This document shows, piece by piece, positions 4,408 through 41,287 of a stretch of 64,000 nt of DNA (position 1 is its first letter; each line of letters begins with the position of its first letter). The position numbers and the translations under genes were made by a program. Source of the stretch: an uncultured Syntrophaceae bacterium (GTDB lineage: Bacteria; Desulfobacterota; Syntrophia; Syntrophales; UBA5619); the NCBI GenBank assembly GCA_964637025.1, contig CAZWTL010000007.1, positions 5,112 to 69,111 of the forward strand, in the 5' to 3' direction. A model generated the notes under the pieces. The model did no database searches and was not told where the DNA came from. It was given only the letters and a program-made list of their open reading frames with translations.

Positions 4408-5904
4408 GTGCAATGCATGGAAATTTTCATGCTGACGGCGGTAGGAATAACCCTGTCCGTCGCATTGATCATCAACAAGAAGAGGGAGCCGCTGCACATC
4501 TCTTTCGCCGCGCTCTGTCTGGCGGTCGCCTTTTACGAGGGGGGCGTCTTCTTCAACCGGATGTTCCATACCGGGGGCTGGCTTCTTGTCGAACAACTGG
4601 GTCTTCTCGCCATTCCCCCCCTGATGATCAAATTCAGCCGCGATTTCTGCGAGGAGCAGACCCTGATCCGGAAACGCGATCTCGGCACCGCGCTGGTGTG
4701 CAGCGCAGGATTCGCAGCGGTTCTTTTCACGGCGGCCTCGGAATGGAGACACCTCGGGTTCTTCATGCATCTCTATGTGAAAGGTGTTTTTCTCCTGTGC
4801 TACGTTTCGTTGGTGGTCTATGCGAAGAAAAGGGCTGCCGGAGCGGAAAAGAAGCGACTTGTCTATCTCATCATTGCGGCCACCGCCGCCATCGCGAGCT
4901 ACTCCATTCCACCCCTGTTCAACCTGGTCGTTGCCGGGATGATCTATTTCATCATGATCGTGATCACCCACACCCATCTGACGGAGCTCCACGATCTCAT
5001 GGCGCGCGCCTTGGTGACGCTGGTCGTGTCCCTCTTCACGACCGTCGTATTTTACCTGGTCATCGGCTTTTTCGGAAAGGGGGACACCCCCCCGTTCACA
5101 CTCGTGCTGATGGTCTCCTTCATCATTGTCATCGCCATCGGACCCTTCCAGGTCATCCTGAAGAGGCTCCTGACCACGCTTTATCCTGAGATCAAGGACG
5201 TCTTCACTTCGCCCTATGATCTGGATGAAAAACTGGAGCGGGAGAAGGCGCTTCTGCTGGAAAAGATGGCTCCCGTTCTCGCGCACGAGATCCGGAATCC
5301 CCTCGGTTCGATCAAGGGGGCGGCGCAGGTGCTCCTGTCGGCGACGCAGGACAAGGATCAGCGCAGGCTTCTGGACGTGATTACCGAGGAGGCGAACCGT
5401 CTGAACCGGGTCGTTATGCAATTTCTCGATTATGCCCGCCCCTATCCGTCCGATTTCCGCCCGCGATCCGTCAATGCGGTCATTGAAAAGGCATTGGCCA
5501 TCGTCGAGGCCGACAGCATTTCAAGCCGCGTACATGTCCAGTTGGAGTTCCACCCCCATCTGCCTCCGGTGCTGATGGATCAGGAGCAGATCCACCAGGT
5601 CATCCTGAACATGGCCCTCAACGCCATCGAGGCGATGCAGGACGGCGGCACGCTGACTTTCCGGACATCCCGGATCGAGAGCGACGCCGGCGATGCCGTG
5701 GGAATATCCATCCGGGATACGGGTTCGGGGATCCAGCGCGATGTGCTGAAACAGATCTTTACCCCCTTTTTCACGACCAAGGAACGGGGGGTGGGGCTCG
5801 GCCTGGCGGTGTGCCAGCGGATTATCCGGAACCACGGCGGACGTATCCGCGTGAAATCCATCCCCGGACGGGGGACGATCTTCTATATTCGTCTTCCGGT
5901 TTGA
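4408..5904 (+). CDS. sensor histidine kinase with polytopic membrane N-terminal domain
   Basis: 498 aa. About 240 aa of hydrophobic multi-TM region is followed by the H-box LAHEIRNPLGS and HATPase_c motifs (DTGSGI, GLGLAV). Confidence 0.85.
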   Translation: MQCMEIFMLTAVGITLSVALIINKKREPLHISFAALCLAVAFYEGGVFFNRMFHTGGWLLVEQLGLLAIPPLMIKFSRDFCEEQTLIRKRDLGTALVCSAGFAAVLFTAASEWRHLGFFMHLYVKGVFLLCYVSLVVYAKKRAAGAEKKRLVYLIIAATAAIASYSIPPLFNLVVAGMIYFIMIVITHTHLTELHDLMARALVTLVVSLFTTVVFYLVIGFFGKGDTPPFTLVLMVSFIIVIAIGPFQVILKRLLTTLYPEIKDVFTSPYDLDEKLEREKALLLEKMAPVLAHEIRNPLGSIKGAAQVLLSATQDKDQRRLLDVITEEANRLNRVVMQFLDYARPYPSDFRPRSVNAVIEKALAIVEADSISSRVHVQLEFHPHLPPVLMDQEQIHQVILNMALNAIEAMQDGGTLTFRTSRIESDAGDAVGISIRDTGSGIQRDVLKQIFTPFFTTKERGVGLGLAVCQRIIRNHGGRIRVKSIPGRGTIFYIRLPV

Positions 5905-12458: not shown

Positions 12459-13094
12459 ATGGTGGTCAAGGTGAAAAAGGACACGGTGGAAACCGTGGAA
12501 GAACAGCAAAAGAGGGCAGGGGATCGGCGGGAGGCGGTGGACGGGACACTGGAAAATGTTCAAGGCGAACCGCGTCAGACGAACGATCTGGCCGCGAAAC
12601 TTCAAGAGGCGGAGAAAAAAGCCGCTGAAAATTACGATAAATATCTGCGCGTCGCAGCCGAACTTGAAAATTACCGGAAGCGGATGGCCAGGGAAAAGGC
12701 CGAGGCGATTCGATACGGCAATGAGAACCTGATCCGGGATATCCTGCCGCTTGTGGACGGGATGGATCGCGCGATGGAGCAGGCCTGCAGCTCGAAAAAC
12801 TTCGAGGCTTTCCAAGAGGGGCTCAAACTGCTTCGGGAACAACTCCTGGGATGCCTGGTGAAACACGGTGTGGAGCAGATCTGTGCGGAGGGAAGGGATT
12901 TCGATCCCCATGTCCACGAGGCCCTGTTGGAGGTGGACAGCACCGATCATCAGAACAGCCAGGTGGTGGACGAATTCGAGAAGGGTTATCTGTTGAACGG
13001 CAGGTTGCTCAGGCCGGCGAAGGTGTCCGTCTGCAAACGCCCTTCCTCAGGCGGGGACCGGCAAGACGGTTGCGAACAGGGCGACAACAATTAA
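12459..13094 (+). CDS. grpE: nucleotide exchange factor GrpE
   Basis: 211 aa. YLRVAAELENYRKR, DPHVHEAL and GYLLNGRLLRPAKV are GrpE signatures. Confidence 0.9.
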   Translation: MVVKVKKDTVETVEEQQKRAGDRREAVDGTLENVQGEPRQTNDLAAKLQEAEKKAAENYDKYLRVAAELENYRKRMAREKAEAIRYGNENLIRDILPLVDGMDRAMEQACSSKNFEAFQEGLKLLREQLLGCLVKHGVEQICAEGRDFDPHVHEALLEVDSTDHQNSQVVDEFEKGYLLNGRLLRPAKVSVCKRPSSGGDRQDGCEQGDNN

Positions 13095-13109
13095 GGAGGA
13101 ATCATTATC

Positions 13110-15035
13110 ATGGCAAAGATTATCGGTATCGATCTCGGAACAACAAACTCGTGCGTCGCGGTGATGGAGGGCGGCGATCCTGTCGTGATCGCCAACCAGG
13201 AAGGGAATCGGACGACCCCCTCGATGGTGGCCTTCACCGAGAGCGGAGAGAGACTGGTGGGTCAGGTGGCCAAACGGCAGGCCGTCACCAACTCGGAAAA
13301 CACGGTCTACGCGATCAAGCGGCTCATCGGGAGAAAATATAATGCACAGGAGGTTCAGTACGACCGCACCATCAGCCCCTTCAAGATCACCGAGGCGGCC
13401 AACGGCGACGCCCAGGTGACGGTACGGGGCCGCAATTACAGCCCGGCGGAGATCTCGTCGATGATCCTGACGAAGATGAAGCAGACCGCAGAGGATTACC
13501 TGGGCGAGAAGGTGACCGACGCAGTCATCACCGTACCGGCCTACTTCAACGACTCGCAGCGCCAGGCGACCAAAGACGCGGGAAAGATCGCGGGCCTCAA
13601 CGTTTTGAGGATCATCAACGAACCCACGGCAGCGGCTCTGGCCTACGGGTTGGACAAGAAGAAGGACGAGAAGATCGCCGTATTCGACCTGGGCGGCGGC
13701 ACCTTCGACATTTCCATCCTCGAACTGGGGGACGGCGTCTTCGAAGTGAAATCGACCAACGGCGACACCCACCTGGGCGGCGAGGATTTCGACCAGCGGA
13801 TCATCGAGTATCTGGCGAACGAGTTCAAGAAGGATCAGGGAATCGATATTCGCAAGGACAAGATGGCCCTGCAGCGCCTCAAGGAGGCAGCGGAAAAGGC
13901 CAAGATGGAGCTTTCCAGCGCCATGGAGACGGACGTGAACCTGCCCTTCATCACGGCGGACGCCTCGGGGCCCAAGCACATGAACATCAAGCTGACCCGG
14001 GCCAAGCTGGAGGCCATCGTGGAGGATCTGATCGAAAAGCTGGTTCCGCCGTGCTTGACGGCGCTGAAGGACGCCAAACTGAGTCCGTCCAATATCGATG
14101 AGGTGATCCTCGTGGGTGGGATGACCCGTATGCCCCGGGTCCAGCAGAAGGTGAAGGAGATCTTCGGAAAAGAGCCGAACAAGGGGGTTAACCCGGACGA
14201 AGTGGTTGCGATCGGCGCGGCGATTCAGGGCGGCGTTCTGACCGGCGACGTGAAGGACGTCCTCCTTCTCGACGTGACGCCGTTGTCCCTGGGCATCGAG
14301 ACGCTCGGCGGCGTGATGACGCGGCTGATCGAGAAGAACACGACCATTCCGACCAAGAAGAGCCAGATCTTTTCCACAGCGGCGGACAACCAGCCGGCGG
14401 TGAGCATCCATGTGCTTCAGGGAGAGCGGTCCATGGCGGCCGACAACCGGACACTGGGCCGTTTCGAGCTGGTGGGGATTCCGCCGGCTCCGCGCGGCGT
14501 GCCCCAGATCGAGGTGACTTTCGACATCGACGCCAACGGCATCGTTCACGTGTCGGCCAAGGATCTCGGCACAGGCAAGGAGCAGAGCATCAAGATCACC
14601 GCTTCCAGCGGACTGTCGGAGGAGGAGATCAACAAACTGGTGAAAGATGCCGACGCCCATGCCGAGGAAGACAAGAAAAAGAAGGAGTTGATCGAGGCGA
14701 GAAACCATGCCGACGCCCTGGCCTACAGCGTCGAGAAGAACGTGAAGGAGTTCGGCGACAAGATCGATCCGGCGGAAAAGGCCAAGATCGAGGAAGGGAT
14801 CGCCAAGGTCAAGAAGGCGATCGAGGGCGACGACCTGCAGGCGATCCAGTCCGCCCAGGAGGAGTTGACCCAGGCTTCCCATAAGCTGGCGGAGGCGATG
14901 TACGCCAAAACCGCCCAGCAGGCCGGCGCAGAGTCAGGACCCCGTCCAGGTGAAGGAGCGGATCCGGGTGCGCAGGCGGGCGGCAAGAAGGACGATGATG
15001 TGGTCGACGCCGATTTCGAGGACGTCAAGAAGTAA
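13110..15035 (+). CDS. dnaK: molecular chaperone DnaK (Hsp70)
   Basis: 641 aa. [22 protein letters not shown] and [11 protein letters not shown] are Hsp70 signatures. Confidence 0.97.
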
Positions 15036-30751: not shown

Positions 30752-33700
30752 TCAGGTCAGGACAAATCCTTTTTCCCGAAACAGAGCCGTACAGGCCTCC
30801 ACCACGGCGGCATCGTATAGGACTCCCTTGTGCCTCTCGATTTCCTCCAGGGCCGCTTCGATGCCCACGGCCGGCCGGTAGGGCCGGTGGGAGGCCATGG
30901 ATTCCAGCACGTCGGCCACGGCCAGGATCCTGGATTCAGGCAGGAGACGGTCTCCGGTGAGGCCCTGAGGATATCCGGAACCGTCGAGACGCTCGTGGTG
31001 TTCGAGGACGATCCTCGCGACCGGCCAGGGGAATTCGATGTCTTTGAGGATGTTGTAGCCCGCCTCGGGATGGACCTTGATCAGGTTGAACTCCATCGGG
31101 GAAAGCCGGGTCGGCTTGCTGAGGATCTCGGCCGGTACGGATAGCTTGCCGATATCGTGGATCGTCGCAGCCAGCCGAAGCCCTTCGATCCGGGTGTCGG
31201 GAAGCCCCATTTTCTGGGCGATGGCCCTGGCCAGATCGGCCACCCGGCGCTGATGGCCGGCGGTGTAGGGGTCCCTGACCTCGACCGAAACGGTCAGGGC
31301 CTGTACCAGCGCCCCCATGGCCTTGTGGAGCCGATCGAGACTCATCTTTCGTTCGGTGATGTCTTCGTTGAACCCTTCGTAGTGAAGAACGCGGCCCTCC
31401 TCGTCGCGGACGGCATACTGGTTCACGGAGACCCAGATGACGCTTCCGTCCTTCCTGCGCAGCCGGTGTTCCTGACCCGCCACGGCGCCCTGCTCGTCGA
31501 TCCTCAGGAGCAGCTCCCGCCGGGCCTCCGGATCCACGAAGAGCTGTTCGTCGGTGTGGGTGACCGATGAGAGGAGATCTTCCGGCGAATCGTATCCCAG
31601 CATCGCGGCCTGCGCCCGGTTGGCCGTGATGTAGCGTCCGTCGGCCGTCACCTGGAAAATCCCTTCCTGGGCGTTTTCGAAGATGCCCCGGTATTTTTCT
31701 TCGGCCTGGCGCAACGCCTCCGCGGACCGTCTCTCTTCGACGATCCTCCAGACTGCGTCCATCAGCAGGGTCAGTTGCCGGACGTCCGACTCGTCGTAGT
31801 CCGACGGCTTGTTCGCCACCGCGGCCACGGCCACGATCCGCTCCCGGCTGAATACGGGGACCGTCAGGTATCTGTAGAGGGGGGCATGTCCCTCCGGGTA
31901 TCCCCTCTTCAGCGGATGGGGACCCTGGAAGTCGTTGACCATGATCGGCACGGCCTGCCGGACCGCCTCACCCCAGAGGCCCGTTTTCTCGAGCAGGTAC
32001 GCTGTCGGGGGATTCTGGATCGAACATGCCTCCATCACCCCTTTCGACCAGGTGTTGAGCGTGAATTCCTGCTTTCGGTCGTCGTAGAGGTAGATGTAGC
32101 CGATGCGGCTGTCCGTCAACCGGATCGCCTCATCCAGTGCGAAGTCCAGCAGTTCCTGGATCGATCGGGCCTGATGCTGGGAGATCCTCAGCAGCCCTTC
32201 CAGCCGCGCTTCATTGCGCCGGATCGCCTCTTCGGTCTGCCTGCGTTCGGTCACGTCCATGTTGAACCCGTTCCATACGATGGCGCCGTCCGCCAGCTTC
32301 TGGGGGGTGGAGCGGCCCAACAGCCAGCGGATCGGCCGGCCCGGAAGCTGGACGCGGTATTCCCATTCCCAGGTCGTCAGGGTTGCAGCGGACGCCTCGA
32401 TGGAGGCGATCAACCGATCCAAATCCTCGGCCAGGACGGCACGGGCGATGGGCGAGAAATCCTCGCTTACGGATTCCGGGGGGCAGCCGAAAATCTCTTT
32501 GATGGCCTCCGTGGTGAACGGCATGCAGTAGGTCCCGTCCGGCCGCCGCATGAACTGGTAGATCATTCCGGGAACATGGGCGGAGAGTTTCTTGAAGCGG
32601 ATGTCGCGTTCGCGGAGCGCCTCCTCCGCCCGCTTGCGCTGCAGCAGGACCCAGACATTCTCCAGAAAGATATGGAGGCGGATCAGGTCGTGTTCCGCAT
32701 AGGGCTCGGGCTTGTTGGCGACGCCGGCCGCCGCAATGACGCGTCCCTCCTGGACAATGGGAACGACCATCAGGCGTGCGATCGGGAGATGGCCCTCGGG
32801 CAGCCCTTTTTTCAGCGGGTTCGGCGCCAGATAATCGTTGATGGTGACCGGTTTGCGCTGCCGGATCGCCTCGGCCCAGATCCCCGCGCCGGTGATCGAA
32901 AACTCCACCGGACTTCCGTTGACCGCGCAATCCCCCATGGCGCGTTCGGAATAGAGCGTGGCCGACATGACGGTTTCATCGGGATTGACGAATCCGAAGA
33001 ATCCCAGCCGGCTTTCGGTGATCCTCACACACTCGTTGATGATGAAGGAGGCGAGGTCGCTGTCGGACGCATCGGGATTCCGGAAGAAATGCAACGTCTT
33101 TTGAAGCAGGTCCCTTTCGCGGAAGAGCGACTCCTCCACCCGCTTGCGCTCGGTGATGTCGCGGATGATCATGCTGTTCTTCTTCTGACCCGCTTCGTCC
33201 GTGAAGATCCTTGAAGAGATCTCCACCGGGAATTTGGAACCGTTGGCGCGGACCATCGTGATTTCCGCCGTGCCTCCCCCCTCGGTTTCCCTCCTCTTCA
33301 GGGCCTCCTGCAGCCGCGGATCCGTCCCGTCCACCAGTCCGTTCCGCCCGACCTCCCGGATCTCCTCCAGGGATCGGCCGAACATCCGGCAGGCCGCCGG
33401 GTTCGCGTCGAGGATGGTGCCGTCCGGCTGGGTCATGAGGATCGCATCCTGAGAATGGTCGAACAGCAGTCGGTATCGCTCCTCGCTTTCCCGGAGCACC
33501 CTTTCGACCCGCCTGAGTTCGGTGACGTCCTGGTTCACGCCGTAGGTCTTGACCGTCCGGCCCTGACTGTCCTTGACGATGAAAATGCGGACCACTATTT
33601 CGCCGACCGTGCCGTCCGCGTAGAGCAACCGGTGTTCGATCGTCCGGCTAAAACGGGGATCATCCGTCTCGATTGCCTTTCGTGTCTCCTCGGCCACATG

Positions 33701-35044
33701 ATGTCGGTCGTCGGGATGGACGAAGCGGCGGGCGTATTCCCCGGAATGCAAGGTGTATCCGCCGACCTCTTCGGCCGTGGTGCGGAAAATCTTGTAGAAC
33801 TGGTCGTTGAACGTGAACAGGTCCTTCTCCACGTCATACTCCCAGTGGCCGAGGTGAGCCATTTCCATCGCGCCGGCGAGCTGTTCCTCGCTCGCCCGGA
33901 GCGCCTCCACTGCCCGCTTGCGTTCGGTGATGTCGCGGATCATGCCGCCGAGGGTGATCCCCCCGCCTTGTAGCGGCACGGGAAACTTGGTCGTTTCAAA
34001 GACACGGTCCCCGACCCGCTCTTCGCTGATCACCACCGAATTTGTCTTCAGGACCTCCAGATCCGCGGCCCGGCACTGCTCGGCCGCGGCAACCGGCATC
34101 AGATCGAAATCCGTCTTGCCGATCAGCTCTTCTGGCGTCTTTCCGAAATAGTCCGCCAGGGCCTGATTGGCCAGCAGATGCCGGAAGCGATCGTCCTTGA
34201 TGTAGACCATGTCCTTCGAGGCGTTGATGAAGGCGCGATACCGCCTCTCGCTTTCCGTCAGGGCCGTTTCCATCCGTTTGCGTTCCGTGATGTCCGTGGC
34301 GATGTGGATGATCCTCTCGAGGCGTCCCTGCTCGTCGAGGATCGGCGTGCAGGTGACGAGGTAGGCACCGCCGAAGGCCTCCATCTCCATCGGACACGTT
34401 TGCGTTTCGCCCGTCTCCAACAGACGGACCAGCGGGCATCCCGGTGCGGGGGTGTCCCTCTGCGTCCCGTGAAAGATCTCGTGACAGGACTTGCCGATGA
34501 GCTCCGTCTCGGAGAGGCCGGAGGCGCGCAGCACCGCCCGGTTGGCCGCAAGGATGCGGTGGCGGGGATCCAGGATCACCGTGGGGCTGCCGATGGCCTG
34601 GAAGATGTTTTTCCATTCCCTCTCGGCCCGTCTCTTGTCCTGCTCGGCCTGCAGCCGCTCCCGCCTTACGGCGGCGTCCCGGAGTTCCCGTTCCACGGCC
34701 GGCGCCAGGCGCTGCAGGTTTTCCTTCATCACGCAGTCGTTGGCGCCCGCCTTCATGATCTCGACGGCCGTCTCTTCGCCGATGGCGCCGGAGACGAGGA
34801 TAAAGGGGAGATCCAGTCCCGTTTCCTTCAGGAGCCTCAGGGCGGCCATTCCGTTGAACCGGGGCAGATGGTAATCGCTCAGGACCAGGTCCCAAAGCTG
34901 GTCCCGGAGTGCAACACGCATCCCTTCCTCGGTCTCCACCCGTTCAAACGACGGTTCGCAGCCGCTCTTCTGCAGGGCGCGGAGTATCAGCAGGGCGTCG
35001 TCTTCCCTGTCCTCGACGATCAGAACACGCAGTGTTTTCTTCAT
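30752..35044 (-). CDS. multidomain signalling protein: REC, 6 PAS, 2 GAF, C-terminal HD-GYP phosphodiesterase
   Basis: Real start at ATG 35044 (MKKTLRVLIVEDRE). Repeated PAS modules each end in DITERK. Two GAF modules are present. The C-terminus has HHERLDGSGYP (HD-GYP). The N-terminal 438 aa of the 1868-aa ORF overlaps a real + strand gene and is an artefact. Confidence 0.85.
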   Translation of the reverse strand: MKKTLRVLIVEDREDDALLILRALQKSGCEPSFERVETEEGMRVALRDQLWDLVLSDYHLPRFNGMAALRLLKETGLDLPFILVSGAIGEETAVEIMKAGANDCVMKENLQRLAPAVERELRDAAVRRERLQAEQDKRRAEREWKNIFQAIGSPTVILDPRHRILAANRAVLRASGLSETELIGKSCHEIFHGTQRDTPAPGCPLVRLLETGETQTCPMEMEAFGGAYLVTCTPILDEQGRLERIIHIATDITERKRMETALTESERRYRAFINASKDMVYIKDDRFRHLLANQALADYFGKTPEELIGKTDFDLMPVAAAEQCRAADLEVLKTNSVVISEERVGDRVFETTKFPVPLQGGGITLGGMIRDITERKRAVEALRASEEQLAGAMEMAHLGHWEYDVEKDLFTFNDQFYKIFRTTAEEVGGYTLHSGEYARRFVHPDDRHHVAEETRKAIETDDPRFSRTIEHRLLYADGTVGEIVVRIFIVKDSQGRTVKTYGVNQDVTELRRVERVLRESEERYRLLFDHSQDAILMTQPDGTILDANPAACRMFGRSLEEIREVGRNGLVDGTDPRLQEALKRRETEGGGTAEITMVRANGSKFPVEISSRIFTDEAGQKKNSMIIRDITERKRVEESLFRERDLLQKTLHFFRNPDASDSDLASFIINECVRITESRLGFFGFVNPDETVMSATLYSERAMGDCAVNGSPVEFSITGAGIWAEAIRQRKPVTINDYLAPNPLKKGLPEGHLPIARLMVVPIVQEGRVIAAAGVANKPEPYAEHDLIRLHIFLENVWVLLQRKRAEEALRERDIRFKKLSAHVPGMIYQFMRRPDGTYCMPFTTEAIKEIFGCPPESVSEDFSPIARAVLAEDLDRLIASIEASAATLTTWEWEYRVQLPGRPIRWLLGRSTPQKLADGAIVWNGFNMDVTERRQTEEAIRRNEARLEGLLRISQHQARSIQELLDFALDEAIRLTDSRIGYIYLYDDRKQEFTLNTWSKGVMEACSIQNPPTAYLLEKTGLWGEAVRQAVPIMVNDFQGPHPLKRGYPEGHAPLYRYLTVPVFSRERIVAVAAVANKPSDYDESDVRQLTLLMDAVWRIVEERRSAEALRQAEEKYRGIFENAQEGIFQVTADGRYITANRAQAAMLGYDSPEDLLSSVTHTDEQLFVDPEARRELLLRIDEQGAVAGQEHRLRRKDGSVIWVSVNQYAVRDEEGRVLHYEGFNEDITERKMSLDRLHKAMGALVQALTVSVEVRDPYTAGHQRRVADLARAIAQKMGLPDTRIEGLRLAATIHDIGKLSVPAEILSKPTRLSPMEFNLIKVHPEAGYNILKDIEFPWPVARIVLEHHERLDGSGYPQGLTGDRLLPESRILAVADVLESMASHRPYRPAVGIEAALEEIERHKGVLYDAAVVEACTALFREKGFVLT

Positions 35045-35290
35045 AACCCTTTCATCTTCCTTTTTCCCCGCAGAAAGACGGGTTGACCGCATGGATGACA
35101 AGAACGACCGGACAAAATCCGTTGCAGGGTGTCTGAACCCGATTTCTCCTTTGCACAATCCGGCAATTTCGTCAACGGACAATCCGCACGACCGGGACCC
35201 TGCGAATCCGAATGGTTTCATGGACCGGAAGGCCATGACCCCTGAAGGAATCCCCTTGCAACGCCATTTCGCATCCGGTAGACTCCGGCC

Positions 35291-36196
35291 ATGGGAAAGC
35301 ATCCGGCCGTGCTCCTCATGCTGCTGCTCCTGCTGACGGCGGCTCCGGTCCGGGCCGGGGAACTCCGGCTGGTGAACGACCGTTTCCTGATCCGATACGG
35401 ACCCGGTGACGATCGGATCGCGGCGGAACTGGAACGGGTTTCGATCCCTATCCGGAACCGGATCGTTGCGGACATTGGTGCGGATTTCACGGAGAGAACC
35501 GAGGTCCGGATCTGCGGCACCCTGGAGATGTTCCGGGAGTCGCAGCCGAGGGGAACATGGGTTCCGCTTTGGGCGGTCGGGACGGCCTATCCTTCGGAGA
35601 ACCTGATCGTCCTGCTCTCGCCGCGGGCCGTTCAAGGCGGCCGGATCCGTTTGCCGGAGGTGTTCGCCCATGAATTCAGCCATGTCGCCCTGGGGCGCGC
35701 CCTCGCGGGGATGCGGGCCCCGGTTTGGCTTAGCGAGGGGCTTGCGATTTACGAGGCGCGGGAATGGAACGTGTCCCGGATCGCCGTGCTGACGCGGGCG
35801 GCACTGACGGACCGCCTGATCCCGCTGCCCGTGCTGACCCTCTCCTTTCCCGCGGATCTGGAACACGCAGAGCTGGCCTACGCGCAGGGCTTCATGTTCG
35901 TCTCCTTTCTGATCAACAAGATCGGCCGGGAGCCTTTCCACAACTTGATCAGGGACTATACCCGATACGGGGATCTGGAGGGGGCGCTCCGGCGGGGAAC
36001 GGGGATGACCCTGGCGGATCTCGAGGGGCGATGGCTGGACTATCTCAAGCTCCGCGTCTCCTGGATCCCGGTCGTCACGGGCGTCTCCGCCCTCTGGTTT
36101 TTCGCGGCGCTCGTGTTCGTCTATGGATACCTGAGAAAGCGGCGGCAGGCGAAGCGGCGTATCCTTGAGATGGAAAAAGAGGAGGCATTCGATTGA
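35291..36196 (+). CDS. secreted/membrane-anchored peptidase MA-like protein (HExxH)
   Basis: 301 aa. Signal peptide, the HEFSHV zinc motif and a C-terminal TM segment followed by a basic tail. Confidence 0.7.
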   Translation: MGKHPAVLLMLLLLLTAAPVRAGELRLVNDRFLIRYGPGDDRIAAELERVSIPIRNRIVADIGADFTERTEVRICGTLEMFRESQPRGTWVPLWAVGTAYPSENLIVLLSPRAVQGGRIRLPEVFAHEFSHVALGRALAGMRAPVWLSEGLAIYEAREWNVSRIAVLTRAALTDRLIPLPVLTLSFPADLEHAELAYAQGFMFVSFLINKIGREPFHNLIRDYTRYGDLEGALRRGTGMTLADLEGRWLDYLKLRVSWIPVVTGVSALWFFAALVFVYGYLRKRRQAKRRILEMEKEEAFD

Positions 36197-36306
36197 TGCC
36201 GTCGACTCCAGCTGTTCCCGTGCTGTTTCCGTTGACATTCCGGGTCCGGATCGATAAGGTGCCGTATCATGCATCGTATGGGTTTTAAGGACGCTTCCGC
36301 GGAGAT

Positions 36307-37668
36307 GTGAAGGTGGATCTTTTCGACCAGCCGGATGGAAGACACGACAACCGTCCACTTGCGGACCGTATGAGGCCGCGCTGCCTCGAGGAATACATCG
36401 GCCAGGGACACCTCCTCGGAGCGGACAGTCTGCTGAGGCGGGCCGTGCAGGAGGACCGCCTCTTCTCCGTCATCTTCTGGGGTCCGCCCGGATCGGGAAA
36501 GACGACGCTCGCCCGGATTCTGGCCGGGGAGACGAAATCCCATTTTTTGAGTTTCTCCGCGGTGCTCTCTGGTGTGAAGGAGATCCGCGTCGTTGTCGAC
36601 GAGGCCTCGGAAATGTGGCGCCTCCATCGACGCCGGACGATCCTGTTCGTCGACGAGATCCACCGCTTCAACAAGGCGCAGCAGGACGCGTTTCTTCCCC
36701 ATGTCGAAAGCGGCCTGATCACCCTGATCGGTGCCACGACGGAGAACCCGTCGTTCGAGGTCATATCGCCTCTCCTCTCCAGGATGCGCGTCCTCACATT
36801 GAAGCCATTCGGCGAAGAGGACCTCATGCGGATCGTGCGCATTGCCCTGGCGGATCGCGAGCGCGGGCTCGGCGATCTCAACCTCCATATCGAGCCGGAG
36901 GCGCTGGCCCACATGGTCTGGACGGCGGACGGGGATGCCCGGGCCGTCCTGAACAGCCTTGAAGCGGCCGCCGCGCTTGCGGACAGGTCGGCCGGAGGGG
37001 CAAGGCTGATCACCCGTTCCTTTGTCGAAGAGGCAATCCAGAAGAAGGCCCTCCAGTACGACAAGACCGGCGAGGAACATTACAATCTCATCTCCGCCCT
37101 CCACAAGAGCCTCAGAGGCAGCGATCCCGATGCGGCCCTGTATTGGCTTGGCCGGATGCTGGCGGCGGGCGAAGATCCCCTGTTCCTCGCCCGACGCATG
37201 ATCCGTTTCGCCTCGGAGGATGTCGGGAACGCTGATCCCCGGGCGCTCTCCGTGGCGATCGATGCCATGCAGGCCTATCATTTCCTCGGCTCGCCGGAGG
37301 GCGAACTGGCCCTGGCGCAAGCGGTCGTTTATCTGGCCACCGCCCCGAAAAGCAACGCCCTCTATGCGGCTTACGGCCGGGTCCGCACGACCATCGACAG
37401 GACGGGCACCCTGCCCGTTCCGCTCCATATTCGCAACGCCCCCACGAAGCTGATGAGAGAGCTGGACTACGGGAAGGGGTATCTGTATGCCCATGATTTT
37501 GCCGATGCCTATGTCCCCCAGGAATATCTCCCGGAAGAGCTTCGCAGGAACGAAGGGCGCTTCTATCGGCCTACGGACCGCGGTTATGAGAAGACGATCG
37601 GCGAGCGGTTGGAGTATTGGAGAAGGTTGCGCGAGGCCGGAGCGGCCAAAAAGGGGGAACCCCGGTGA
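36307..37668 (+). CDS. rarA: replication-associated recombination protein A (AAA+ ATPase)
   Basis: 453 aa with a GTG start. Walker A GPPGSGKTT, FVDEIHRFNK and a MgsA C-terminal domain (ALYWLGRML). Confidence 0.9.
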   Translation: MKVDLFDQPDGRHDNRPLADRMRPRCLEEYIGQGHLLGADSLLRRAVQEDRLFSVIFWGPPGSGKTTLARILAGETKSHFLSFSAVLSGVKEIRVVVDEASEMWRLHRRRTILFVDEIHRFNKAQQDAFLPHVESGLITLIGATTENPSFEVISPLLSRMRVLTLKPFGEEDLMRIVRIALADRERGLGDLNLHIEPEALAHMVWTADGDARAVLNSLEAAAALADRSAGGARLITRSFVEEAIQKKALQYDKTGEEHYNLISALHKSLRGSDPDAALYWLGRMLAAGEDPLFLARRMIRFASEDVGNADPRALSVAIDAMQAYHFLGSPEGELALAQAVVYLATAPKSNALYAAYGRVRTTIDRTGTLPVPLHIRNAPTKLMRELDYGKGYLYAHDFADAYVPQEYLPEELRRNEGRFYRPTDRGYEKTIGERLEYWRRLREAGAAKKGEPR

Positions 37669-37677
37669 TGGATGGTT

Positions 37678-37711
37678 CCAAAAACGACGGGGGGCTCTTG
37701 GGAGCCCCCCG
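37678..37711 (-). terminator. intrinsic terminator with minus-strand polarity
   Basis: Perfect 10-bp stem CGGGGGGCTC/GAGCCCCCCG (37688-37711) with loop TTGG. The minus strand continues TCGTTTTTGG. The plus strand continues CATTAAGG, with no U-tract. Confidence 0.6.
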
Positions 37712-37802
37712 CATTAAGGAGGAGTGGAAAACCTGGCGGTCTTCCTGGGGTCGCTTTACCGTCGGCTGATCGTGCCCGCGTTCAGTCAACAGCTGCTTTT
37801 GA
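37678..37802 (-). ncRNA. candidate sigma-54-dependent small RNA (about 120 nt)
   Basis: Bounded by the sigma-54 promoter at 37814-37828 and the terminator at 37678-37711. There is no ORF with an RBS. It contains CCACUCCUCCUUAAU (anti-SD-like) just 5' of the terminator. Confidence 0.35.
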
Positions 37803-37813
37803 CCATGATTAAA

Positions 37814-37828
37814 GCACCATTCGTGCCA
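37814..37828 (-). promoter_or_regulatory. sigma-54 (-24/-12) promoter candidate
   Basis: The minus strand reads TGGCACGAATGGTGC. TGGCACG is perfect, the GG-N10-GC spacing is exact, and the -12 element is GTGC versus TTGC. Confidence 0.5.
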
Positions 37829-38081
37829 CCGGGATGGATTATTTGTAAGTATTTGAAAAACGGGTATAAATTAAGATTGATTTCCCGAAGGATCGTCAGA
37901 AAGCAGGTAAAGTCCGGCAAGGATTGTCGTCCCCCCTTTTGAAACCCTTGTAGAAAAGATTATTCAAAACGAGTTGTTACGCTGATTGTCCCGATTTGAC
38001 GCCCGATCGACAAAAATGTCGAGGCCGCGCCCGGGCAATGCCGCTGCCGGACCCGTTGCACGGGTGTGAATCAACAAAACG

Positions 38082-38109
38082 TTGACTTTTCGGGACAATA
38101 ACCTATAAG
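38082..38109 (+). promoter_or_regulatory. sigma-70-type promoter candidate for the HK/RR operon (near-leaderless)
   Basis: TTGACT, a 16-nt spacer, then TATAAG. The -10 ends 11 nt before the ATG at 38121, and no SD lies between them. Confidence 0.35.
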
Positions 38110-38120
38110 AATACCCCATC

Positions 38121-39923
38121 ATGAGCCCTGACAAAAAGATCATTTGGCAAGAGCAATCTCCCCGTTTCAATCGCCCGTTTTTGCAGCCGCTGGCCGTGGG
38201 CATTGTCTGCGTCGTCCTGATTGCCCTGATCCTGTCGATGGGGATCATGGATCTGCGGCGCAGCGAACAAACCCTGGTTGGTTTCATGGAGGATCAGGGC
38301 AAACGGATCATTGACATGGTCGAACGGCTCACCGAGGAGAACCTCAAAACCATGATCATGGCCTCGCAGCAGCCGCTGGCCGGAGCTGCCGCTCCGCTGG
38401 CCGAGCCGGGTCTCTACCCTCAGAAATTTCTGACGGACGCGATCGTCGACATGGGGCGGGAGATCGACAACCGGTGGAAAAGGGAGCATCTGAGCGAGTC
38501 CTATATCCGCAACTACGCGCGGGAAAATCGGCTTTATATGGTGGCGGTTGTCAATGGCTATGGGGAGGTCATTTTTCAGAGCCGGCCGCTTCCGGACAGC
38601 CGTTTGGAAGACCATGGGTCTGAAGAGACGGGGGAACGGTCGCGGACGTCCGCTGACCTGCTGAGCCGCCTCAACAGACTTAACCGTTTGAAAAAAATCG
38701 GTTTTATCGGGCTCAGCCGGAGGGACGAAAGCGGCACCATCATCCTGGCGCTGGACCGCGAAAGTCTCCGGTACTGGGGGATCCGGGTTTCCGTCGAGAA
38801 GGCGATGGAGAAGCTGGGGGAGGGACAGGGATTCGTCTATCTCGCCATCCGGGACCCGAAGGGTTCACACCTGGGCAGCGTGGGAGAGCCGCCCACGGAA
38901 GCAGAACACACCGGGTCGATTGACGAGAAGGTTCTGGCAGGCACGGTCCCGTTTGAAAGCCGCAAGGTCCAGTTCGGCGTCCAAAGTCTTTTGGAGATTG
39001 CAGCCCCGCTTCGTCTGGGGGGGGAGATCGCGGGAATCGTCCGCGTCGGCCTGGAACGGGGCAATACGGACAAGATCCTCGACGAAAACCGGCGAAATAT
39101 GTTCCTTTTCCTCTCCTTCGTGGTCCTGATCGCACTCCTGTCGATGTGGCTTCTCTACCAAAACCAGAACCGTCACCTGGCGGGGGTCGTGGAGATGACG
39201 CGTCAGCTCGAAAAGGCGGAGCGCCTCTCATCCCTGGGGCAGCTTGCCGCCGGGGTGGCGCACGAGATCCGCAATCCGCTGAACGCGGTCAGCATGGCGA
39301 GCCAACGTCTCAGAAGGGAGTACATGCCCGGAGAGAAGGAGAGGCGCGATGAATTCATGGTCCTGACCGGGGTCATTCGCGACGAGATCCGGAGGCTCAA
39401 CGGGATCATCGAGGAGTTCCTGACCTTTTCGAAGAGCCGGCGACTGGAACTCCGCGATTGTCCGGTGCAGGAGGTCCTGCAGAAGATCGTGAACCTGGTG
39501 TCCGAGGAGGCGGAGGTCAGAGGAATCCGCTTCCGCACCGACTGGGCGGTAGCGCCGGTCGTTGTCCCGATGGATATGGACAAACTGCAGCAGGCCCTGT
39601 TCAATTTCGTCAAGAACGCGATGGAGTCCATCAGCGGGGAAGGGGTCGTGACCCTTGCCGTGAGGGGTACGGAAAATGGACGCGTGAGTCTCCGCGTGAC
39701 CGATACGGGGTGCGGGATGACGACCGAAGAGGTGGAGCGGATCTTCAATCCCGAGTATACGACCAAGGAGAAGGGGCTGGGGCTCGGGCTTCCGCTTGCG
39801 CACGAGATCGTCCGCGGCCACGGGGGTGAGATCCGCGTCCTGAGCCGGAAGGGGCAGGGGACGACCTTCGAGATCCTGCTTCCCAAGGAGAGGCGCAATG
39901 ACAAGGGGGTGAAAAACGCATGA
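38121..39923 (+). CDS. sensor histidine kinase with large extracytoplasmic domain
   Basis: 600 aa. Two TM segments flank a loop of about 290 aa. H-box VAHEIRNPLNA and HATPase_c (DTGCGM, GLGLPLA). Confidence 0.85.
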   Translation: MSPDKKIIWQEQSPRFNRPFLQPLAVGIVCVVLIALILSMGIMDLRRSEQTLVGFMEDQGKRIIDMVERLTEENLKTMIMASQQPLAGAAAPLAEPGLYPQKFLTDAIVDMGREIDNRWKREHLSESYIRNYARENRLYMVAVVNGYGEVIFQSRPLPDSRLEDHGSEETGERSRTSADLLSRLNRLNRLKKIGFIGLSRRDESGTIILALDRESLRYWGIRVSVEKAMEKLGEGQGFVYLAIRDPKGSHLGSVGEPPTEAEHTGSIDEKVLAGTVPFESRKVQFGVQSLLEIAAPLRLGGEIAGIVRVGLERGNTDKILDENRRNMFLFLSFVVLIALLSMWLLYQNQNRHLAGVVEMTRQLEKAERLSSLGQLAAGVAHEIRNPLNAVSMASQRLRREYMPGEKERRDEFMVLTGVIRDEIRRLNGIIEEFLTFSKSRRLELRDCPVQEVLQKIVNLVSEEAEVRGIRFRTDWAVAPVVVPMDMDKLQQALFNFVKNAMESISGEGVVTLAVRGTENGRVSLRVTDTGCGMTTEEVERIFNPEYTTKEKGLGLGLPLAHEIVRGHGGEIRVLSRKGQGTTFEILLPKERRNDKGVKNA

Positions 39924-41287
39924 AAAAGCTGAACATCCTGGTGGTCGAGGATGGCCGGTCGCAACGGGAGATGCTCCGGGACTTCCTCCGAAAGGAGGGA
40001 CACGCCGTGGAAGAGGCCGAAAACGGCGAGAAGGCGGTGCAACTTGTCCGGGAGGGCCACTTCGATCTGCTTCTGCTCGATTACAAGATGCCCGGGATGG
40101 ACGGCATGCAGGTCCTCCAGGCTGTCAAGGGGATCAATCCCGAGATCGACGTCGTCATCATCACCGCCTACGGAACGATCGAGACGGCCGTGGATGCCAT
40201 GAAGGCCGGCGCCCTGGATTACATCACCAAACCCGTGGAGTTCGAGGAACTGCTGCTGTTGGTGGAACGGGTCGCGGAGCGTCGAACCCTCATCCGGGAG
40301 AATGAAATCCTGCGGGAACAGCTGGGAGAAAAGGGGGTGACGACCGACCGGATCATCTACAGGGGAGAGAAGATGAGATCCCTGATCAATATGGCCGGAC
40401 GGGTCGCACCGAGCCGTGCCACGGTTCTCCTCCAGGGGGAGAGCGGCACCGGAAAGGAGCTTCTTGCGCGTTTGATCCATCACCTGAGCCCCCGCTCGTC
40501 GCGGCGGGTCATCGTGGTCAACTGCGGCGCTCTCCACGAAAATTTGCTGGAGAGCGAGCTTTTCGGCCATGAAAAGGGCGCTTTCACCGGGGCGACGTCC
40601 CGACGCATCGGCCGGTTCGAGGAGGCGGACGGGGGGACCCTTTTCCTGGATGAAATCAGCGAACTCTCACCGCAGGTCCAGGTCAAGCTCCTCCGTTTCC
40701 TCCAGGAGCACGAGTTCCAGCGCCTTGGCGGAAACCAGACCCTCCGCGCCGACGTCCGGGTGATCAGCGCTACCAACCGCGACCTGGAGAAGCGGGTCAA
40801 GGAGGGGGCTTTTCGGGAAGACCTCTTCTACCGTCTCAACGTCGTGCTGCTGTCGATTCCTCCGCTACGGGAGCGGAAGGAGGATATCCCGGCGCTGATC
40901 GACCACTTCCTGAGACGGTATGGAGATGAAAACGGGAAGGAGATCCAGGGCCTCAGCAGCGAAGCGCAGGACATCCTCCTCAAGTATGACTACCCGGGCA
41001 ACGTCAGGGAGTTGGAGAACATCGTGGAACGTGCGGTCGTGATCGCCCGCGAGGAGGTCATCTCCGTCGAAGACCTGCCCTTCCGCGACGTTGCAGGGGA
41101 TACGGCGGACAGCCGGAAATCGGAGGAGGGGCTTCTCCGGGGATCGATCGAGGAACTGGAGAAGAAGCTGATCCTCGAAGCGATGGAGAAGTCGGGCGAC
41201 AATCAGAGCCGCGCTGCCGATCTTCTCGGGATCAGCGAGCGGATGCTCCGCTACAAGCTCAAGAAATACGGTCTGAAGGGATCGTGA
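39920..41287 (+). CDS. sigma-54-dependent response regulator (NtrC family)
   Basis: 455 aa with a 4-nt overlap with the HK stop. REC, Walker A GESGTGKE, GAFTGA and a C-terminal Fis-type HTH. Confidence 0.9.
   Translation: MKKLNILVVEDGRSQREMLRDFLRKEGHAVEEAENGEKAVQLVREGHFDLLLLDYKMPGMDGMQVLQAVKGINPEIDVVIITAYGTIETAVDAMKAGALDYITKPVEFEELLLLVERVAERRTLIRENEILREQLGEKGVTTDRIIYRGEKMRSLINMAGRVAPSRATVLLQGESGTGKELLARLIHHLSPRSSRRVIVVNCGALHENLLESELFGHEKGAFTGATSRRIGRFEEADGGTLFLDEISELSPQVQVKLLRFLQEHEFQRLGGNQTLRADVRVISATNRDLEKRVKEGAFREDLFYRLNVVLLSIPPLRERKEDIPALIDHFLRRYGDENGKEIQGLSSEAQDILLKYDYPGNVRELENIVERAVVIAREEVISVEDLPFRDVAGDTADSRKSEEGLLRGSIEELEKKLILEAMEKSGDNQSRAADLLGISERMLRYKLKKYGLKGS

Follow-up and report, generated by a model that had tools for sequence, protein, structure and literature searches.

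A predicted sigma-54-dependent small RNA family divergent from a Zra-like kinase/regulator operon in Syntrophales

The locus described here raises the question of what is encoded between the rarA gene and the operon of a sensor histidine kinase and an NtrC-type response regulator in a 64,000-nucleotide stretch of DNA from an uncultured Syntrophaceae bacterium (contig CAZWTL010000007.1; this whole stretch is called the window below, and all positions refer to it unless a locus is named). The initial annotation had proposed a gene for a small RNA (sRNA) of about 120 nt, divergent from the kinase/regulator operon and read on the minus strand from a sigma-54 promoter. Because of its conservation, synteny and covariation, the core of this proposal is strongly supported, and the sequence data argue for a sigma-54-dependent, non-coding minus-strand RNA gene of ~120 nt that is divergent from the operon of the kinase and its NtrC-type partner.

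The predicted sRNA gene occupies 37803..37680 of the minus strand (~124 nt) and follows a sigma-54 promoter at 37828..37813 on the same strand (TGGCACGAATGGTGCT), with the −24 element TGGCACG and the −12 element GTGCT. This promoter, which had been placed at ~37828, is the sole match to TGGCACG-N4-KTGCW in the window, where 0.01 matches are expected by chance without mismatches (a match occurred in 1 of 100 shuffles) and 0.56 with up to one mismatch. Reckoned from the GC at −12, transcription would start at ~37803 (±2). At the other end lies an intrinsic terminator (37712..37680, minus strand), consisting of a 10–11 bp GC stem (37712..37687) and a U-tract (37684..37680), with the letters CGTTTTTGG/CGUUUUUGG 3′ of the hairpin. 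Terminator prediction returned it on the minus strand only, the polarity originally assigned to the GC hairpin and its U-tract. The 125-nt stretch has a predicted folding energy of −57.2 kcal/mol, with a z-score of −4.99 relative to dinucleotide shuffles.

Conservation of this arrangement was approached from both the kinase side and the RNA side. Relatives of the kinase at 66–79% identity are numerous, and those with names belong to the Syntrophales. Our kinase-side sample comprised 22 loci with full-length or near-full-length kinase relatives from species-representative genomes, fetched by kinase homology alone. A minus-strand TGG-N9-TGC[AT] element was found upstream of the kinase in 17 of the 22, usually 230–400 bp off, and in all eight Syntrophales loci of the sample (L001–L004, L006, L007, L009 and L020) the promoter was followed by a homologous RNA consisting of a hairpin with the loop CGGGCAYG (conserved in 8 of 8), a C/U-rich stretch and a terminator. 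On the RNA side, a metagenome collection was scanned with only the core of this first hairpin (GGGCAYGRTYRRCCGAYRRNAAA), the promoter being left out of the pattern. The scan gave 120 loci, 89 of which carried TGGYA-N7-TGC 48–66 nt upstream of the RNA core. Where promoter-bearing loci had room upstream, the orthologous kinase was divergent in 73 of 75, with the regulator behind it wherever the contig extended. Both the −24/−12 elements and the terminator were found to be conserved beside orthologous kinase/regulator pairs.

The extent of the family was defined with two covariance models. The first (R1), built from 14 sequences with a hand-annotated seed and Infernal realignment, found at least 83 full-length homologues at E ≤ 4e-9, the named ones all from Syntrophales; the window holds a single copy (113 bits, E = 2e-36), and its covariance-model match extends over 37679..37806. 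The second (R2), built from all 83 full-length copies, found the family in Syntrophales loci only, apart from a divergent L005 copy (36 bits), and gave chance-level scores only (E ≥ 0.014) on loci with unrelated kinases. Applied to 16 pattern matches without the promoter, R2 recognized three RNA copies cut at the contig end (L112, L131 and L153); the 13 that gave no match are therefore chance matches to the pattern. TGGYA-N7-TGC accompanies 80 of the 83 full-length matches, a −12 GT variant is found in two (L091 and L094; TTGT stands for TTGC at −12 in these and in L145), and one, L192, has neither.

Downstream, the RNA gene is convergent with the RarA/MgsA gene (36307..37668, plus strand), which in the window ends ~11 nt short of the 3′ end of the RNA, and a convergent rarA is found 75–300 nt from the RNA core motif in most promoter-bearing loci. 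Such proximity could mean that the element acts in cis on rarA, either through an antisense or read-through transcript or by serving both genes as terminator, and is not trans-acting. We consider this very unlikely: the U-tract lies on the RNA strand only, so the terminator is not bidirectional; the RNA is fully conserved in one clade in which 700–870 nt and other genes intervene before rarA; and an antisense effect would need no conservation of three internal helices.

Those three helices, which comprise 30 pairs, were assessed in a model-fitted alignment of 82 distinct sequences. Hairpin 1 (37792..37759, minus strand) joins arms 37792..37782 and 37769..37759 around a loop (37781..37770) that contains the near-invariant CGGGCAYG, and 5 of its 11 pairs changed on both sides (for example GC:48/AU:30). 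Hairpin 2 (37745..37726, minus strand; GGAAGACC/GGUUUUCC) is variable in sequence and is deleted in one clade (L002/L003-type sequences), and all eight of its pairs changed on both sides. For the terminator, present in 76 of 82 unique homologues, this holds for 10 of 11 pairs. Over the whole set, 23 of 30 pairs changed on both sides compared with a mean of 18.6 in shuffles, the covariation score was 0.389 compared with 0.195, and 0 of 500 shuffles attained the observed values; standard pairs made up 90.6% of cells, as against 28–50% when partners were slid by 1–3 columns. Covariation among the homologues thus supports the three helices.

Base-pair covariation is not expected in coding sequence, and this bears on the possibility that the conservation is due to a small protein, encoded either by a plus-strand open reading frame (ORF) at 37724..37942, which the initial annotation had named as a potential alternative, or by a short ORF after rarA. 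The former is a 72-aa GTG ORF that does exist in the window and has no Pfam match; homologues resemble its product over the first 25–28 residues only, the part that overlaps the RNA core, and this antisense ORF was rejected as a conserved gene since no homologue keeps it whole. In addition, the deletions and size changes of hairpin 2 do not come in multiples of three nucleotides. With respect to the latter, a gene caller put a 33-aa gene right after rarA in identical contigs (L202:1008-1109, corresponding to window ~37668..37769, plus strand), which encode an identical kinase; antisense to the RNA terminator and hairpin 2, this called gene is very likely an artefact. Overall, we regard a small protein as an extremely improbable cause of the conservation.

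Analysis of the region between the RNA promoter and the kinase gene revealed a conserved candidate enhancer, a perfect 16-bp palindrome at 38007..38022 (TCGACAAAAATGTCGA; TCGACA-N4-TGTCGA), which has one exact match in the window and starts 194 bp upstream of the −24 TGG. The commonest 9-mers upstream of the promoter all derive from TCGACA-N4-TGTCGA. In 55 of 79 non-redundant loci the palindrome starts 191–195 bp upstream of the −24 TGG while the sequence between diverges, whereas its distance to the kinase gene ranges from ~20 to >300 bp and that to the kinase promoter block is also variable; the promoter to which the palindrome is coupled is therefore the sigma-54 one, not that of the kinase. 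An enhancer role had originally been suggested for the 10-mer ATTGTCCCGA, which is indeed present at 37985..37994 and inverted at 38090..38099. Neither copy is a conserved element, and the one at 38090..38099 falls in the spacer of the conserved sigma-70 promoter of the kinase, so we rejected these copies as enhancers in favor of the palindrome.

The AT-rich tract noted previously at ~37836..37893 was confirmed (29% G+C). Within it, just upstream of the −24 element, lies a site resembling those of integration host factor (IHF) at 37858..37846 on the minus strand (TTTCAAATACTTA), to which IHF may bind; 39 of 79 non-redundant loci have the pattern WWTCAR-N4-TTR at −60..−10 relative to the −24 element, compared with 2.3% of shuffled controls. 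The kinase/regulator operon has a predicted sigma-70-type promoter of its own at 38082..38109 on the plus strand (−35 TTGACT, 38082..38087; 16-nt spacer; −10 TATAAG, 38104..38109), part of a block (CGTTGACTTTTCGGGnGAATGnCCTATGAT) conserved upstream of the kinase in most loci. In the window only 11 nt separate this promoter from the ATG and the mRNA would be nearly leaderless, while close relatives have a 5′ leader of 100–300 nt between the promoter block and the start codon. A further palindrome, TCAACGTTTTGTTGA at 38069..38083, overlaps the kinase −35 element; it is specific to the window and was set aside because it is not conserved in relatives. It is probably fortuitous, and alternatively could be a local autoregulatory site.

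To which signal might such a promoter respond? The kinase (38121..39923, plus strand) consists of a periplasmic domain of ~280 aa between two transmembrane helices, followed by HisKA and HATPase_c domains. The regulator (39920..41287, plus strand), presumed to be the activator of the RNA promoter, is an NtrC-type enhancer-binding protein with REC, AAA+ (Sigma54_activat; GAFTGA at residue 220) and Fis-type helix-turn-helix (HTH_8) domains. Both genes, like rarA, are as initially described. For the cytoplasmic part of the kinase the best solved relative is ZraS (9jfj, 2e-38), and the matches of the regulator in the Protein Data Bank (PDB) are NtrC4/NtrC1 and ZraR (1ojl). The periplasmic domain gave no sequence match in Pfam or PDB, and a Foldseek search of PDB with an AlphaFold model of the kinase (pLDDT 64, low confidence) was dominated by matches to the cytoplasmic core and returned nothing on the periplasmic sensor. 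On the far side of the locus, the listed start of an 1868-aa signalling protein (30752..36358, minus strand; REC, many PAS and GAF domains, and a C-terminal HD/HD_5 domain of HD-GYP type) overlaps the start of rarA by ~50 nt, and one start codon of this pair is probably mis-assigned.

Comparison with more distant orthologous loci from Desulfobacterales and Syntrophobacterales, in which the kinase is 33–45% identical over its full length, revealed a divergent sigma-54 promoter that drives the gene of a small secreted protein with Pfam matches to Metal_resist and LTXXQ; in NCBIfam this protein matches ZraP best, a periplasmic chaperone and feedback modulator. The ZraP-like gene is the divergent, sigma-54-dependent gene in L010–L014 and L016; in other relatives ZraP-like genes are the first genes of the kinase operon. 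Ahead of the ZraP-like genes of L010, L011, L013–L016 and L021, TCGACA-N4-TGTCGA again lies upstream of the sigma-54 promoter, and the recognition helix of the regulator (HTH motif SERMLRYKLKKYG) is conserved in RNA-type and ZraP-type loci alike; in L017–L019 the recognition helix differs, and a search for the palindrome found none. R2 gave no RNA match on loci with ZraP-like genes, and no ZraP-like gene was found anywhere in the 64-kb window. Since the same type of kinase and regulator, the palindrome and the sigma-54 promoter drive a ZraP-like protein in these distant loci, the RNA occupies the zraP slot. The simplest reading of these sequences is a Zra-like extracytoplasmic stress module in which the divergently transcribed target gene specifies a ZraP-like protein in some lineages and the RNA in Syntrophales. 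In this order, a Zra-like extracytoplasmic stress system most likely has the RNA as its dedicated output, given that this regulatory equipment serves a ZraP-like protein in related Thermodesulfobacteriota.

The likeness extends to ZraPSR of E. coli and Salmonella, in which a periplasm-sensing kinase and a REC-AAA+-HTH_8 regulator also share one operon, and in which a divergent sigma-54 promoter is likewise accompanied by an A/T-centred palindrome. The E. coli K-12 zraP-zraS intergenic region (L201:3780-3831) contains the sigma-54 promoter for zraP and two palindromes, GAGTAAAAATGACTC, which have in common with the Syntrophales palindrome the 7-nt centre AAAAATG while the outer half-sites differ; the common centre hints at a shared binding mode among ZraR-like regulators. 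Unlike ZraPSR, the system described here has an RNA in place of ZraP as the divergent gene, in the window and throughout the Syntrophales clade, its periplasmic sensor domain is much larger than that of ZraS, and its kinase operon has a sigma-70-type and not a sigma-54 promoter.

These comparisons open the possibility that a Zra-like system in Syntrophales swapped its protein output, ZraP, for a riboregulator in the same enhancer and sigma-54 promoter slot, an idea we put forward only tentatively and hold as somewhat doubtful. Two loci are candidate intermediates of such an exchange. L192 carries both a good RNA copy (L192:318-447, 86 bits) and a ZraP-like gene (L192:789-1073), convergent downstream where rarA is expected; it may represent an intermediate or rearranged layout, or an assembly chimera. 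L005 carries the divergent RNA member (L005:4489-4614) with a weak −12 element (TGGCACGATTTCTGA), and has at ~4750-4820 the tandem GACA-N6-TGTC palindromes AGACATTTTTTGTCAT and TGACAATTTTTGTCAC in place of TCGACA-N4-TGTCGA. Within the clade that lacks hairpin 2, L119 and L133 encode a secreted protein of 156–171 aa on the same strand, ~110–210 nt after the RNA terminator. This protein has no Pfam match, and its C-terminal tail is Gly/Lys-rich like those of the ZraP-like proteins from L010–L012; the sister loci L107, L114 and L125 have a protein with a B12-binding domain at this position.

The conserved segments of the RNA suggest how it might act. Just before the terminator, an unpaired C/U-rich segment (37725..37713, minus strand; ACUCCUCCUUAAU) contains the anti-Shine-Dalgarno core CUCCU and is a candidate seed. 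The initial annotation had pointed to a 15-mer with anti-Shine-Dalgarno character, CCACUCCUCCUUAAU, which is present at ~37727..37713; its CUCCU core, which lies outside the search pattern, is conserved in the unpaired segment in 70 of 82 distinct homologues, whereas the full 15-mer is not conserved. A seed search, which covered this one 64-kb window and not a whole genome, returned an 11-nt match at the dnaK ribosome-binding site plus scattered 9–10-mers only, and whole-molecule target prediction with duplexfold yielded only physically meaningless long-loop duplexes. The 11-nt match is a perfect complement of the CU-rich segment (AUUAAGGAGGA, 13090..13100, plus strand) upstream of an ORF with a DnaK-like N-terminus (13110..15035), and may simply be a strong Shine-Dalgarno sequence.

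That specific mRNA complementarity was not found in the window would also fit an RNA that is real and sigma-54-dependent but mainly binds a protein through the hairpin-1 loop CGGGCAYG, as a decoy, sponge or adaptor (compare GlmY/RapZ), with no mRNA pairing. Conservation is highest in a stem-loop whose 8-nt loop is near-invariant and whose stem keeps an A-C mismatch in 54 of 82 sequences, a pattern typical of protein recognition sites. We nevertheless think a mainly protein-binding role unlikely, because there is one copy of the hairpin, unlike in the multi-site sponges CsrB or RsmZ, because the A-rich 5′ end and the conserved unpaired CUCCU beside the terminator are what is typically seen in sRNAs that act by base pairing, and because the target search extended over 64 kb only.

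The explanation that we favor as a whole, and hold to be quite probable, is that of an independent structured RNA of ~124 nt, made from a regulator-activated sigma-54 promoter, acting by CU-rich pairing and providing a Zra-like stress output. The periplasm-sensing kinase would phosphorylate the adjacent NtrC-type regulator, which would bind TCGACA-N4-TGTCGA, ~210 bp upstream of where transcription starts, and activate the sigma-54 promoter through DNA looping, probably aided by an IHF-like bend in the AT-rich tract. The kinase/regulator operon itself would be transcribed from its own conserved sigma-70-type promoter. Once made, the RNA would pair in trans through its CUCCU segment with the Shine-Dalgarno regions of target mRNAs and block their translation, and the hairpin-1 loop may provide a second contact or a protein-binding site.

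Several observations weigh against parts of this explanation. The alignment used to count covariation was fitted to the structural model and is hence biased towards the structure; plain MAFFT followed by RNAalifold gave the terminator and three hairpin-1 pairs only; wrongly placed gaps in the hairpin-1 5′ arm were the reason that it missed the first two hairpins. As the hairpin-1 core was itself the search pattern, its invariance among the metagenome matches is partly by construction. The balance of G-U over A-C cells (149 versus 102, with 54 of the 102 A-C cells at the conserved hairpin-1 stem mismatch) supports the minus strand only mildly, so the strand call rests mainly on the promoter and the terminator. 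The L192 homologue has no recognisable sigma-54 promoter. With respect to function, CUCCU could pair with any strong ribosome-binding site and thus confers no target specificity, and the target search within the 64-kb window was convincing for no gene. Finally, neither protein reaches the NCBIfam cut-offs for the Zra system: the kinase scores 210 bits against NCBIfam ZraS (cut-off 479), in its C-terminal part only, and the regulator 463 bits against ZraR (cut-off 760), and the scores for AtoS and AtoC are a little higher and likewise stay under the cut-off (AtoC 502 bits; AtoS in the C-terminal part only).

Is the RNA then a member of a known family? Sigma-54-dependent sRNAs beside NtrC-type regulators are a known kind, exemplified by Qrr/LuxO in Vibrio, where qrr1 is divergent from luxO, and by GlmY/GlrR in Enterobacteriaceae. 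The parallel drawn to these systems in the initial annotation holds for the architecture but does not extend to family membership: Rfam searches of 37400..38400 at E ≤ 10 gave three chance-level matches to unrelated families only, with Qrr, GlmY and GlmZ not matched, and a search of the whole window at the gathering score gave nothing relevant. As in Qrr/LuxO, a short sigma-54-dependent sRNA gene adjoins and is divergent from an NtrC-type regulator, which is its activator in the Vibrio system and presumed to be so here, and like Qrr the RNA has multiple hairpins, an intrinsic terminator and an unpaired seed, here a candidate one. It differs from Qrr in sequence, in hairpin layout and in phylum (Thermodesulfobacteriota, order Syntrophales), and unlike in Qrr/LuxO the sensor is a periplasmic-domain kinase in the operon of the regulator. 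GlmY with GlrK/GlrR (QseE/QseF) follows the same plan as proposed here, in that an envelope-linked, sigma-54-dependent sRNA is activated by the adjacent kinase/enhancer-binding protein pair through upstream sites and IHF. GlmY is, however, a protein decoy and also has an overlapping sigma-70 promoter, whereas the RNA described here carries a candidate seed rich in C and U, and a single palindrome lies ~193 bp upstream of its −24 element.

The sigma-54 regulome of Desulfovibrio vulgaris includes non-coding RNA targets of DVU0679, DVU0653, DVU1419 and DVU2359, and the DVU1419 regulon is annotated as envelope stress and non-coding RNA (PMC3333781, PMC4641369). As far as their descriptions allow a comparison, these RNAs are similarly deltaproteobacterial, sigma-54-dependent and beside response-regulator enhancer-binding proteins; unlike the RNA in the window, they are located downstream of their regulators or at other sites, and they are uncharacterised. 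Among the papers of the library searched, none connected Syntrophus with both a small RNA and sigma-54. The features of the class are present in the locus, namely conserved −24/−12 elements correctly spaced from the 5′ end of the RNA, an adjacent GAFTGA regulator with a conserved candidate site upstream, and a structured non-coding RNA that runs to a terminator. Judged by these sequence features, the RNA is a new family within a known class, that of sRNAs dependent on sigma-54 and an enhancer-binding protein and located beside their two-component system.

The Syntrophales, including Syntrophus, Smithella and their relatives, are key syntrophic degraders of methanogenic sediments and digesters and are genetically hard to handle. 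What is gained for them is a well-defined, widespread RNA family with a likely transcription factor, enhancer and promoter, each of which is testable in a heterologous host. The locus would also provide a tidy evolutionary case, in which one conserved module of kinase, regulator and enhancer is used for a periplasmic protein in some lineages and for a small RNA in another. If ZraP was indeed exchanged for a riboregulator in this order, the stress response would act post-transcriptionally, for example through anti-Shine-Dalgarno silencing of mRNAs for envelope or secreted proteins or through feedback on the kinase and regulator, and the system would be a clear example from nature of a regulon whose single target, a protein, was replaced by an RNA.

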